In this document: piece after piece, positions 1-30,000 of the stretch
Layout: every line of letters begins with the position of its first letter
Position numbering within the stretch: the first letter of the stretch is position 1
Virus record (IMG/VR): IMGVR_UViG_2531839014_000003
Location: 64,001 to 128,000 of that record
From: a virus
Lineage: Duplodnaviria; Caudoviricetes
DNA length: 64,000 nucleotides
Strand: one strand, 5' to 3'
Position numbers: made by a program

Positions 1-3000
1 AAATTTCTTCAGATTTTTTTTTGAGCCAGTCAACCTGCATGGTTAACTGACCAACCTTTTTAGCATACTCCGCCTTTTCCTTGCGTTCTTCAGCAAGCTT
101 GTCTTTGAGGTTTTCCTCACGCTTGTCATCGAACACTGAGGAAGCGTTGTTAAGGAATACTTTCTTCCAATTGCGGAGCAGATTTGGTTGGATGTTATTC
201 TCGGTTGCAAGGGAGTTTAGATCTTTCTCGCCCTTAAGCAGCTCGATTACTAGGTCTGATTTAAATTTGGCACTAAAATTTCTTCTTTGTCTGGACATAA
301 TGATGAATCCTCACTTTCATACTGATTTTAGTATATCAGATTCATTAATATTTGTCCGAAAAAGTGTCTTAATTTATGAGACCATTATACTCAATCCCCA
401 AATCATTTTTAACCTTAATGCAGTCACCGTCGAAGCCAAGTAATTTATACTTTCTACCGGGAGTAAGATTAAATTCTTCTCCTCCTTCAGTAGCTTGAAT
501 ATATTCCCCAATAGAAACCAACTCCATAAAGTCCAAATCGGTTGTATACGGATTTAACGCTATTTTTCCATTTATTATCACCTTAATTACACCTTCTCCT
601 TTTTTGATTTATTAGTTTCGTTTTTCTTCTATCCTTTAATAGACATCCCAAATTCTTGTTCATATGTGTTTATATCATCTCTCAACATGTTTTTAACTTC
701 TTCTATTGAAAGAACTTTTTCTATCATATATTTTCTATAGCCTATTTTTGAAAATAAGTTCATTCCTTCTGTTACTCTGACTAATATATAATTATTTCGC
801 TCGGTTTTCATTACATATTTCCGTTTAATGCCTAGATAACATATTGTATAATTTCCTTCTATATAATAAGTATCCAAACTATCATCGCTACCAAGACAGG
901 TTATACTAATAACAGAACATTTAGATGTGTCAAATAACTTATCATCAATTATCTTTTTATTATGATAAATATCTTCTATTTTATAGTTAGTTTTTACAAC
1001 ACGTATTTCTCCTTCTACATTTATATTTTTCGCTCTGTTGCTATTATCATTCTTAAATAAACTCTTTAATTTTTCTATAATTTCTCCCTCCATAAATCTT
1101 TGATTCATCTGTTAATTTAATCTAATAATTAAATATTTATCAGGATATTTACCAGTTGCCTCAAATATTCCTTCTATGCCAAATGCTTCAAATACTATTC
1201 TTCCTTTCTTAGTTTCAATTTTTATCTTTTCATCCATTGGATAATTTAATAACTCTTTAATAGCATCTTTGACTGTTATATCCATACCATATACTCCTTA
1301 GATTAACTTGAAATCACGGTTTGGTTCGTTTTCAAAATGTCAGTTTAATGTGTCAATGATGACTTACTTACCAACCCAATTTTTCCCATTTTTTTCATAA
1401 ATAACTTCATTTCGTAATATGTAAGTCCGGCACAGGTGTTGCCAATCTTCTTATTGTTCATTTCTTTATCATATGACTGAATAATGTGTTTACCTGATTT
1501 TTTATGTAATAAATCAACGCATTGTGTATACTTATATTTTTTATTGTATCTTTCGTAACAGGCTCCGTATTCATCGTCTGATACCTTTGTAAATCCAATT
1601 TCTTCTAACTTGTCATCAATATTTTTAAATAATTTCATCATGTATTCCTCTTTCTCCGACACTCAGCAGTCGGCTGCTAATATTAATTTTGCCGCTTAAT
1701 CAACGTAGCAACATAACTACTCCGCTTTTCACCTGTAGCAAGCTCAATCTTTACCAACCCACGGTGCTCCAACGCCTTCATGGTGTCAGTTCTAATGGTT
1801 TGCCCCGGCAAATTATAGGCCCCCCAAAACGACCAATTAGGGAGTTCACATAAATAAAATTCTTCTTGTTTCATAAGTTCCACGGCTTGTTCCATTCTTT
1901 TTGATAGTTTCAAGCTTTTCATTTCATAACTGACTCTGCTTCACGGTCTAAATCTAAAACAGCAACACCATCACTGTATCCAACATCAGCAAGACCATTA
2001 ACACTATATTTGTCCATGGTTAATCCCCAACCAACACTCGGATATAAATGGACTGCTTTTACCTCAAATTCTGGATTCTCCAACAACTTTTCCGCCAATT
2101 CTTTCGCTTTCATGTATTCCTCCAAATTTTAATTTTCAAGATCATCTTGGTTTATATTTTTCCAACCAAAACAAATCGTACACCAATGTCATTGTGATAA
2201 TTAGCTCTTTTACGCTCTCCTCGTGATTTTTGATGGCTGACCTGTGCCCATATGTTATTAGGAGTAGTACCAAATAGTTCAGCCAAATTTTTAGCGGTAT
2301 CTGGATGAGCCAGAGGCAACTCATATCTATCTGGTGTTACTTACTGCCATATACAACTTCATATCAATACCTCCTGTTTTAACTGTCCACATTCAACCAT
2401 CTCATCTTCCGTACCTTTATAAGGCCAATTTGTTTCCCTCAGTTCCTGTTCCTCAGCTGAACAATAGTATTCACAGTATCCTCTGCTACACCATTCACAC
2501 CGGATATTTACCTGGCTAATCATGCAGCAACCCCTTTCTTGTTCAAATACTTCTCCAAATCTTGCTTCATATGTAAAAAATTCTTCTGCTGATCTATAAA
2601 ATATGTATTATTATTCTTGGCATACTCTAACATCCATTCATCCAGATCGATGTCAATTTCGATTGAATAAGCCACCAGAGCTACCAATGATAATCTGTTA
2701 TCCGGATTCAATAGCTTTGAGCCATCTTTTATTGTTCTATCCTCCAGGTCGTCAAGCATCTGGTTATAAAAGTCCATATCGTTTCTAACTGATTCGATGT
2801 TTAGTCCAACATTTCTAGCTATAAACTGTTCTGGTGCTATTTTACAATTCTCCCTTTTTGGTTCTTCAATATGTAAGAAATCCATCATCAGTTTTTCAAG
2901 TAATACCAATTTTCTTTTGATTACTGCCTTATCCTTAGTGGCCCTATTGGCATTAATTTCGTCAAAGGATACGCCATCTATTACCTTACTGTGCAATTCA

Positions 3001-27000: not shown

Positions 27001-30000
27001 ATAGAGGTATACGGCTTATTGGATAAAACACTCATACATGCCTTCCAATAATATTTTAGTTCTTCATCATTCATCGTTTTTAAATTACGCATTTAGTCCT
27101 CCAATCTGTCACACAATGACTTGAAATTCGCTTTTCTTCTGTTCTCTAAACTTTTCTTTTACAATAACGCTCTTAGCTTTTCTGAAAACTCTTTCAATGC
27201 GTTTTCTTTATATTCCTCATTATGTACAAGGTCAACAACGCCAGGAATGCCAGCAAAACCATTTCTTTTAGCTTCTAACATTAAACAAGTTTCTTCCTCT
27301 ACATCAAACGCCACATAACACTCATCTACTTCTTTGTATAGTCTTCCAATCAATTCCTTCTTAGTCTTTGGATTTTCGATTGTAAGCGTTGTACACCAGT
27401 CCTCATTACAAGGATTATTACCTTGCATATAGAGTATAATATCTTTCTTTTCTTTCTCTACTGTAAAAGAAAAATCTGTGCCTTCTGATACTTTCTCTAA
27501 ATATTCCTCTATTTGTTCAATTTTCATTGTTCTACCTCCATAATATCTATAAGTTGAAATGTGAATTTCCTGCTATCGTTCAATCATATATAAAATTGTC
27601 TCTGCCTATATATTCACCAGCTTCATAATCTTCATCTGAACAGCCTGAATACCATGTACACTTACCATGTCTATCTTCCTGTTCTGAAACTTCTTCCATA
27701 CAATCCTCTTCACTATTACCATGGAAATACAACCGTTCCCCATCCTCATAATCAGCAACAATTTTCCACGGTGTAACTAATGGCAAATATTCTTCTTTTG
27801 ATATTCTAGCCATCGTAATTCCTCCATTCATCACACGAAATTGCATTTTCTTACGCAAGTCTCCGTTTCCGTTCTATCTCTTCTAAATACTCCTCAAATT
27901 CCGGAATGCACTCGTTCAATTCTCCAAAATCACAACGCATTTTTATGCCATTCTTTTGGAGAAGATAATGACCGTATTCACGTGTAACGCTAATTCCATT
28001 GATTTTTATTCCAGTTATTTGCATTATTTCACCTCCTGAACATCATTACCATGTGACGAGTGGCCACAAGCCACATCCCTATTACAATACATACTATAGC
28101 AGCCATTCCAGCCGTTCTATCAATTGCAGAAATTGCGCACCCTAAAACGATCATAATGACACCACACAATTTTTGCTTGATGAAATATACCCTCATTCGT
28201 GTTTTTGTTCTATTTCTCCTAGCCCTCTGCAAATCAATAATCTTTTCCGCTTCTGTGAGCGTATATAACGGCTCATAACAGATTGTCTCCTTTAACATAT
28301 TTCCTTACCCTCCTGTATTTTTCCGATTATGAACACTATAAAAGGCACTACGGTTTTTTATTCTCCGTAATGCCTTCTGACTGTTCACAATAAATTACAA
28401 TTTCTTCGGGTTTAATTTGCCTTTGGTAGCATTTCTCTTAAATCGTATTCTTCTAGTTCAATACCGTTGATGGATACGAACACGGTATAATCGCATATGT
28501 AACACTTTTCTTCCCGCTCTTGTTCCTCCGTTGTATCCAAAATATTACAATCGGAGTCTTCTATTTGGTTCCAAGAAACTCTATTATCTATAATAGATAA
28601 ATCGGATTCTTTGAAGTCTGAATAATTGCATTTATTGATATATGCAAGTAACAGCTCACCAATTCTATTATTAGCATGAATATCTACATCAAAGTTCCCA
28701 TTATAATATTCCATACCGGAGTACTGACAAAATTTTCCCTCTCCTTCTTTAGTCCACTCGTTAACCATTTTGATTCCGCCTTGAATAGACAATTTGAAAT
28801 TGTTCTGAAACTTTGCTATATTTAACATGATTTTATCCTACAATTTTCCGTATTATAAAAGGAAGGCTGCTAAACCTTCCTTTTACTGACTCTATGTTGT
28901 TAAAAAATCATTCCAATGCTGCAACAAATTTCTCCATCCACGCCTCACTAACATTCCCGGCAAAGATGTTTTCTATTAAGCGGCTCGTTAAATTCTTTTC
29001 TGTCAGCCACAATTATACAAAATTCTTTGTAAGAACCTGTTTCTAAAACCTCATTAAATGTCATTCTTATAATGTCCGCCTCCCCTATTTGCTCCCATAT
29101 AGTCCAGACAGTGACTTATAGTTTTTATCACTTATCCATGGTAACTGTGCAGCGTTTCCACCTCTGACAATCTCCGTTGTGCCGTCCTCATAGAAAATTT
29201 TGCCGACCTTGTTCCCGTTTTGGTCCATAGCGCTATGCCACTTCTTAACGGGTTTCCCGTTCCATACTTTCATATATGTACCGCCTTTCTTTTCGTATTT
29301 ATACGGTTGTATGCCATTGTAAACCACGCTTATTGTATAAAGGAATCCAGTGTGCTTCATAAAAATCATATCCGGCACCATCTATTCCGAAGAAGTAACC
29401 AAATTCATTTGATTCATAAATCCTAAAGCCACAATCGGCCATTTCATTAAGATGATTTTCAAGCCACCAATTGTCACAAGAATCAGAAAACTGCCACATT
29501 GTTCCCCACATAGGAAAATAATCATCGTCTTCTCTGCTTAAATCCTCTTTTAATTCCTCGACCTTTTCGCCATTGGCAAGTTCAATAACTGCAATTTCTT
29601 CTCCATCTTCATTTTCTTTTATCTCTTTTATATAACCCATTTCCTGATTTTCATTGCTCCATACTCTACAACCTTCTGAAACTGGCGTGATTTCTCTCCA
29701 ACCGTCAATATCTAAATTAAACAATTTTTCTATCATTCCCAAAGGGAAAGCGTTAAAAGTTCCAACCCATTCTCTACATGCTTCTAAAATTGTTGTAATT
29801 TCTTTTGTCATAGTCTCCACCGTTTTAACCTTTCTTATTCTTCAATTTTTTCTCTTCCAGTAATGAAAAATCAAAAACTCTCTTCTCTTTACTGGTTTCA
29901 ACTCCATCTGCTAATATCAAGCCATTTTCTTTTGCTGTTTTTTTGCTGTCTTAAACAGTTTATATTCTTTCATCGTTTCCCCTCCATAGCCTCCTGGGCA

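Follow-up and report, generated by a model that had tools for sequence, protein, structure and literature searches.

What is the short palindrome that recurs between the accessory genes of a large temperate gut phage, and could it move those genes? How mosaic phage genomes arise has remained unsettled from the modular theory onward, and the linker sequences that this theory proposed were seldom encountered. The window analyzed here (64,000 nucleotides; bases 64001 to 128000 of the 165,423-bp provirus record IMGVR_UViG_2531839014_000003) includes part of a 97-kb minus-strand gene arm (genome positions 1 to 97,500; window positions 1 to 32,000), followed by a plus-strand arm that encodes the terminase and structural genes. 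Genes were called by our own procedure over the whole provirus. An earlier note on this DNA described a 14-bp pseudo-palindrome (i.e., NAAW-N6-TTTY) at 23 positions between window positions 1310 and 28404 and read the region as a candidate integron-like array of single-gene cassettes. We find that the palindrome has a strict spacing, that its six-base centers recur in the same order in related phages with unrelated genes between them, and that two natural inversions have their crossovers inside such centers. The motif probably serves as a core site for site-specific recombination by the phage, with the center acting as an address, and a 272-amino-acid (aa) tyrosine recombinase encoded within the array is the likely enzyme.

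A palindrome with fixed spacing at gene junctions

The sequence given in the earlier note is present at all 23 positions, and 18 of them satisfy the strict pattern. When scored by their match to TGAAAT-N4-ATTTCA (maximum score, 20), 20 of the 23 sites reach at least 15 at gene junctions; the sites at 1334 and 2123 are weak, and the one at 16786 has a degenerate right arm. Sites are not confined to the interval from 1310 to 28404 and are spread along the entire 97-kb arm. The window has 47 junctions whose gap measures 25 to 400 nucleotides (nt), and 25 of these contain a site. Sites lie 0 to 20 nt past the upstream stop codon and approximately 11 to 35 nt ahead of the next start. The upstream stop codon had also been reported to be built into an arm of the site; it does form the first arm at 12890, 15747, 20710, 21271, 22985, and 25030, while at 13672 it is one base off.

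The loose 14-mer showed no overall enrichment, with 69 matches in positions 1 to 32000 and 62 matches in the opposite orientation in positions 32001 to 64000. These similar counts in the two halves indicate that its density tracks the coding-strand composition. The signal lies in spacing and position. A count over the 165-kb provirus gave 18 intergenic copies of GAAA-N6-TTTC in the minus-strand arm, compared with 0 to 2 copies for each of the spacings N2 to N5 and N7 to N10. A relaxed 16-mer gave 27 intergenic sites, versus 0 to 5 with other spacers, and its counts in coding regions equal the background. The everted arrangement (i.e., TTTC-Nx-GAAA) was not enriched in the whole provirus. Expectation maximization on intergenic DNA from which Shine-Dalgarno (SD) sequences had been removed recovered AtGAAAt.....tTTc with a log-likelihood of 81.5, while shuffled sequences gave 47 ± 3.4 (a difference of approximately ten standard deviations). 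The positional enrichment on which the earlier note had staked its case is upheld by both position and spacing counts; the spacing controls rule out chance, AT-richness, and stop-codon context as the source of the motif.

The aligned sites yield a symmetric logo (i.e., C..A-TGAAA-t....a-TTTCA-T..G). Strong conservation resides in the 5-bp arms TGAAA and TTTCA, and a weak symmetric signal is visible at positions -3/+20 and 0/+17 (i.e., out to 24 bp). We detected no covariation between arm positions, pairing being no better than expected for independent columns inside and outside the arms. Symmetry without base-pair covariation fits a DNA palindrome that is bound by protein and composed of two independently degenerate half-sites, and we reject an RNA hairpin because of the lack of covariation between the arms. 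An intercistronic mRNA signal for processing, stability, or translation would agree with a motif that is always transcribed and lies just 5' of the SD sequence. However, chance pairing is not exceeded outside the fixed A/T core, the stem would comprise three to five weak A-U pairs, and the would-be loop (i.e., the center) varies between sites yet is conserved for each site, making such a signal an extremely unlikely explanation.

The aligned flanks contain no conserved promoter or terminator at a fixed distance from the sites. A role as the repressor operator of the lysogeny switch was rejected, since the switch region has its own, different palindrome. This palindrome (ATAGGTTTAACCTAT) is present in two copies (window 33594 to 33620 and 33669 to 33695) in the divergent region between both arms, and the copies are probably the operator of that switch.

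Conserved centers, unrelated genes between them, and two inversions

A phage nucleotide search returned no near relative. Relatives were gathered through the 272-aa recombinase (here called the array recombinase) and include L004 (87% identity), L007 (72%), L008 (69%), and L002 and L003 (~52%), together with 55 IMG/VR loci from phages of 90 to 205 kb. Most of these loci show enrichment of the motif. Single sites, including their six-base centers, recur in different phages with both flanks unrelated. Identical 6-nt centers at sites with non-homologous neighbors exceed the expectation (6 versus 0.12, 8 versus 0.52, and 5 versus 0.36; P < 5e-4 in each case). The six longest stretches of exact identity that L007 and L008 share beyond their alignable DNA all turn out to be sites, in collinear order. 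With sites labeled by allele, four phages have the order B-K-D-E-F-G-recombinase-J-A-H-I-M in common but differ in the genes that fill each slot (cargo includes TIR, Fic, HEPN/AbiU2, RelB-ParE, PemK, and a choline-binding protein). Site order is likewise perfectly preserved in eight loci (Kendall tau, 1.0), one of which has a recombinase that is only 44% identical. The variable slots of L007, L008, L004, and L072 are rich in defense and toxin genes (i.e., TIR_2, Fic, HEPN_AbiU2, RelB/ParE, PemK, Uma2, and RNA 2'-phosphotransferase).

Within this genome, no pair among the 72 intergenic sites shares a center, and duplicate centers obtained at a low score threshold were noise only. Since all 72 centers are unique, no recombination is expected between neighboring sites, and the array should be stable. 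This uniqueness, and a site length of 16 bp instead of the 55 to 140 bp of attC, speak against the integron-like capture and excision of single-gene cassettes that the earlier note had proposed, and neither circles nor deletions were observed. Unique centers instead favor exchange between genomes at matching addresses, along with local inversion switches.

The ends of homology between relatives fall partly on the sites and partly elsewhere. L072, which carries an identical recombinase, matches the window at 99.6% identity up to the sites at 25807 and 14744, and homology stops at the 3' edge of each. The last base of the arm at 14744 is already different, which would be expected of a right arm inherited from another parent. 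The breakpoints of L004 lie at the 5' edge of a site, inside a site, at the 3' edge, or off any site. Off-site breakpoints imply that general recombination also shapes the array and that exchange is not limited to the sites.

Two polymorphic inversions place the crossover inside the center of such sites. Inversion A (genome 53530 to 53837; 308 bp; 10.2 kb ahead of the window start) has opposite orientations in G000 and L016 compared with L012 to L015, and its flanks are up to 100% identical between orientations. In the present record it leaves a Dam-type methylase split, and an in silico flip yields an open reading frame of 243 aa. Nine contigs from other samples encode the intact Dam methylase (P0177), to which both halves are 100% identical, while the split form is found on another contig, which ends within the invertible segment. 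Inversion B (genome 51609 to 51756; 148 bp; 12.3 kb ahead of the window start), which is flipped in L012 and L014 relative to G000 and L013, lies directly 5' of a PAPS-reductase-like gene; its orientation shifts the called start (319 to 345 aa), and no consensus promoter or terminator was found in or around it. Three combinations of the A and B states were found, indicating that the segments switch independently. As in other invertible DNA switches, both segments exist in both orientations and are bounded by inverted repeats.

The sites at the ends of inversion A are TAAAT-TTGAAT-TTTCA and TAAAA-ATTCAA-TTTAA in one state and TAAAT-TTGAAT-TTTTA and TGAAA-ATTCAA-TTTAA in the other. For each segment, the centers of the bounding sites are reverse complementary (TTGAAT/ATTCAA in A; TAAAAT/ATTTTA in B), and in both inversions the outer arms have been exchanged exactly at the center. 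Arms swapped at matching centers are the signature of a tyrosine-recombinase crossover between matching overlaps. The tyrosine-recombinase core-site geometry suggested in the earlier note is borne out in this respect: such sites consist of inverted arms that stand a constant distance apart on either side of a 6- to 8-bp overlap, and here 5-bp inverted arms flank a 6-bp overlap, only the 6-bp spacing is enriched, and both inversions cross over inside the center, between identical overlaps.

Could the sites instead be short conserved linkers for general or phage-encoded homologous recombination, like the promoter early stem-loops (PeSLs) of phage T4, with no site-specific recombinase involved? 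PeSL-mediated shuffling is documented (PMC2839356), and breakpoints at the edge of a site, inside it, or a few bases off, some of them in coding DNA, would agree with such linkers. However, just 9 to 18 bp of identity are available, and a strict 6-bp spacing with palindromic arms has no role in homologous recombination. Both inversions, moreover, use 9-bp identities that coincide with the site centers, with the arms swapped as by a tyrosine recombinase. We consider the linker explanation improbable.

The comparative data fit site-specific crossovers between genomes at same-center sites rather than single-gene excision. Strand exchange would take place within the 6-bp center, between the two 5-bp inverted arms, and, as for other tyrosine recombinases, two sites would recombine only if their centers match, leaving the ~70 sites of one genome mutually inert. 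Relatives do carry the same centers in the same order. When two genomes meet (i.e., by co-infection or when a phage enters a cell with a prophage), crossover at matching sites would swap the intervening genes while keeping the gene order. In one genome, a pair of sites with the same center in opposite orientation would allow the segment between them to flip, giving an on/off switch. On balance, and with some caution, we favor a broader view, in which large temperate phages of gut Firmicutes carry genome-wide address-coded sites for a natural recombinase-mediated cassette exchange; driven by a tyrosine recombinase that has no core-binding domain, this exchange would swap defense, toxin, and other accessory genes with relatives slot by slot, and the sites would also form phase-variable switches, such as that of the Dam methylase.

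Candidate recombinases and objections

The provirus encodes three tyrosine recombinases, including an integrase near the provirus end, and no serine recombinase. In the 272-aa array recombinase, the catalytic set (i.e., R89, K118, H202, R205, H232, and Y241) is intact and shows no substitution across 17 sequences that diverge to 35% identity. A Foldseek search with its predicted structure gave a probability of 1.0 for the matches to XerA, XerH, IntI, lambda Int, and Cre. Residues 1 to 38 are predicted to be disordered, the folded part begins at approximately residue 45, and the conserved alignment starts at M41. The family is located within the array in every relative examined, and it is found together with the motif in approximately 50 large gut phages. 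An unbiased scan of 256 four-base arms at nine spacings chose GAAA-N6-TTTC, or the equivalent TGAA-N8-TTCA, in approximately 38 of the 54 loci with this recombinase family, and Enterocloster phage PMBT24, whose recombinase is equal in size but unrelated, lacks the motif. Judging from this co-occurrence, the 272-aa protein is likely the enzyme acting on the sites, an assignment that could be wrong.

The 347-aa recombinase of the plus-strand arm, in which the HSLRH, W, and Y motifs are recognizable by eye, the integrase near the provirus end, or host Xer might recombine the sites instead. The presence of three tyrosine recombinases in one provirus and the resemblance of the 5-6-5 layout to the inner part of dif sites would suit such an enzyme, but the position of the 272-aa family inside the array in all relatives examined and its co-occurrence with the motif, a correlation only, point to the array recombinase. 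A different enzyme is unlikely, yet it is the alternative that deserves the most weight.

A further possibility is that the palindromes bind a dimeric regulator of the early/accessory arm and that gene swapping is a by-product, because nothing else is conserved between the variable genes. The half-sites are independently conserved, lie 10 bp apart around a free center, and occupy a fixed position between stop codon and SD sequence, as an operator might. There is also a precedent in phage SPbeta, in which MrpR, a protein with a recombinase fold that has lost its catalytic residues, binds the repeated element SPBRE and represses promoters (PMC10516654). SPbeta resembles the present phage in being a large temperate phage of Firmicutes with a recombinase-fold protein in an accessory array and a repeated intergenic element. 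The present sites differ in lying between stop and SD rather than at promoters, and no promoter keeps a fixed distance from them. Centers are conserved site by site even where the proteins have diverged to 44% identity, whereas an operator made of arms needs no such center, and both inversions swap arms precisely at the center. The array recombinase, unlike MrpR, has all its catalytic residues; an MrpR-like inactive role for it was rejected on this ground. An operator is, in our estimation, slightly more improbable than a homologous linker.

Several observations weigh against a site-specific system driven by the array recombinase. The strongly conserved arms measure only 5 bp, while those of Cre, FLP, and Xer sites measure 11 to 13 bp; the recombinase-bound arms of a core site have about 9 to 13 bp, and the symmetric signal outside the 5 bp is weak here. 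The predicted structure of the 272-aa protein lacks the N-terminal core-binding domain (i.e., the DNA clamp), although this absence would fit the short arms, and the protein is linked to the sites by co-occurrence alone, with one negative control. Off-site breakpoints are found at window positions 23362 and 23600 (relative to L004) and 22558 (relative to L072), and breakpoints fall near sites in any case, as both occupy short intergenic gaps. Both inversions lie outside the window, though in the same provirus, and one partner site of inversion A is within coding sequence. Finally, the gene calls are home-made.

A GmrSD_N/DUF262 (ParB-like) domain is found in two proteins of the window (2520 to 3950 and 17840 to 18913). 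In several relatives, the recombinase is preceded by the second of them and by a 309-aa protein that belongs to no known family. Such an order recalls yopR-yopQ-yopP of SPbeta, with no homology shown; the 309-aa neighbor was considered as an MrpR homologue and rejected, as it has no sequence match among solved structures. A 101-aa gene (window 20723 to 21028) has weak matches to the phage-integrase N-terminal SAM-like (core-binding) domain, standing alone. Its occurrence only in the closest relatives suggests that it is slot cargo and not part of the core system.

Comparison with known systems and other features

In the heterospecific lox and FRT sites of Cre and FLP, inverted arms surround a short center, only identical centers recombine, and this property is used for cassette exchange. 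The present sites are similar in that differently centered sites on one molecule would be independent and the DNA between them would be swapped in order. However, lox and FRT variants are products of engineering and have 13-bp arms with an 8-bp center, while the phage has approximately 70 natural centers per genome, 5-bp arms, and a recombinase without a core-binding domain. Integron attC sites are imperfect hairpins of 55 to 140 bp with R and L boxes that are recombined single-stranded, and the cassettes leave as circles and enter at attI; nothing of this kind was observed in the phage. The likeness that led to the integron comparison is genuine (i.e., a same-strand array of mostly promoterless genes with sites between them, a tyrosine recombinase alongside, and IntI among the fold matches), but the sites here are 16 bp (24 bp at most), and their flanks have no further conserved signal. 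FimB and FimE acting on fimS, and Rci acting on shufflons, are small tyrosine recombinases that flip segments between short inverted repeats. The two invertible segments appear to work in the same manner; the difference is that the same type of site is also found here at approximately 70 junctions without a partner in the genome.

The 28-bp pdif sites of Acinetobacter plasmids (11-6-11) have one arm for XerC and a different one for XerD, and host Xer is thought to act on them (PMC6449649). As in the phage, many Xer-type sites with a 6-bp center flank accessory modules that occur in different replicons, while a position-specific, ordered set of centers is not described in that study. PeSLs of T4-type phages comprise a sigma-70 promoter and a terminator hairpin and act via homologous recombination (PMC2839356, PMC4122927). 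They share with the present sites the property of being short, repeated intergenic elements in hyperplastic regions that mark swaps of small accessory genes between related phages. The phage sites differ from them in having a strict 5-6-5 layout and site-specific inversion junctions, and neither a conserved -35/-10 signature nor a terminator stem-loop is found beside them. Our literature search found no description of a system of this kind.

Such sites would provide a concrete, testable mechanism for the formation of mosaic phage genomes and would explain the orderly swapping of accessory and defense genes among large gut phages. They also imply that a phage can place its own DNA methylase under on/off control (i.e., phase variation). 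In addition, multiplexed cassette exchange would profit from a small recombinase that uses a 16-bp site, for which nature provides dozens of orthogonal centers. The identical 272-aa protein was found in 305 index blocks of a public contig collection, mostly from gut metagenome assemblies, and in one NCBI genome assembly; since the recombinase is common and present in a sequenced genome assembly, experiments look feasible. Relatives of the array recombinase are found in Lachnospiraceae (e.g., Lacrimispora, Blautia, and Eubacterium segne).

Table 1. Sites and candidate recombinases in the window (window coordinates; scores as defined in the text; core, shared site core in related loci)
Feature	Sequence or allele	Position	Strand	Remarks
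Junction site	CCAAACCGTGATTTCA (coding strand)	1309..1324	-	Score 16; between stop and SD
Junction site	TGAAAGAATTGTTTTA	7400..7415	-	Score 16; L004 homology ends within center
Junction site	AGAAATAACTATTTGA	11030..11045	-	Score 17; exact 12-mer core in 7 related loci, same relative position
Junction site	AGAAACTACTATTTTT	11747..11762	-	Score 15; L004 homology restarts within site
Junction site	TGAAAGGCTGGTTTAT, allele M	12157..12172	-	Same allele in L004, both flanking genes unrelated
Junction site	TGAAATGCTGTTTTAA, allele I	12890..12905	-	TGA = upstream stop; core in 5 loci; flanks unrelated
Junction site	TTAAATGTTGCTTTCA, allele H	13672..13687	-	Common to L007, L018, L025; flanks unrelated
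Junction site	TGAAATCCGGTTTTCG, allele A	14744..14759	-	In 7 loci; L072 homology (99.6%) stops at last base of site
Junction site	TAAAATTTCGATTTTC, allele J	15747..15762	-	TAA = upstream stop; related allele in same slot of L007 and L008
Site overlapping gene start	CGAATGTCTGATTTCA	15996..16011	-	Common to L004, L017, L019; L004 homology ends at 3' edge
272-aa tyrosine recombinase P0001, candidate enzyme		16955..17773	-	PF00589, 48.6 bits (cut-off 27.1)
Junction site	GGAAATTAGAAATTCG	20256..20271	-	Score 16
Junction site	TGAAATCTAAGATTCA, allele G	20710..20725	-	TGA = stop; same center in L008, flanks unrelated
Junction site	TGAAATTTGAGATTAA, allele F	21045..21060	-	Same center in L007 and L008, flanks unrelated
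Junction site	TGAAATAATAGATTCA, allele E	21271..21286	-	TGA = stop; core in 9 loci
Junction site	TGAAAGGATTATTTCA, allele D	21926..21941	-	Score 19; core in 9 loci; 17-nt identity island between L007 and L008
Junction site	TGAAACGGATATTTGA	22985..23000	-	TGA = stop; score 17
Junction site	TGAAATACATGTTTAC, allele C	25030..25045	-	TGA = stop; L004 homology starts at first base; core in 7 loci
Junction site	AGAAATATACTTTTCA	25807..25822	-	Score 18; 99.7%-identical block of L072 ends 2 nt past site
Site	TGAAATGCACGTTTAC, allele B	26025..26040	-	Core in 10 loci; flanks unrelated
Junction site	GACAATACAAATTTCA	26259..26274	-	Score 15
Junction site	AGAAAAGCGAATTTCA	27122..27137	-	Score 18
Junction site	GGAAATTCACATTTCA	27555..27570	-	Score 19
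Junction site	AGAAAATGCAATTTCG	27836..27851	-	Score 17
Junction site	AGAAATTGTAATTTAT	28390..28405	-	Score 16
347-aa second tyrosine recombinase, alternative candidate		50790..51833	+	SAM-like N domain; PF00589, 68.6 bits, and PF13495

The window also contains other features. A tRNA-Lys gene (52089 to 52162, plus strand) lies within the 370-nt gap 3' of the 347-aa recombinase, and a tRNA-Gln gene is located at 5366 to 5439 on the minus strand. A 402-aa protein encoded in the first part of the plus-strand arm (35770 to 36978) has a RelA/SpoT synthetase domain. An insertion sequence of the IS256/Mutator family (2,043 bp; 8969 to 11011; transposase at 9021 to 10301, plus strand) is polymorphic, being missing from contig L074, which is elsewhere 99.9% identical. 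A second copy, with an 8-bp duplication, is present at the position corresponding to window 24245 to 24252 in NCBI genome assembly L073.

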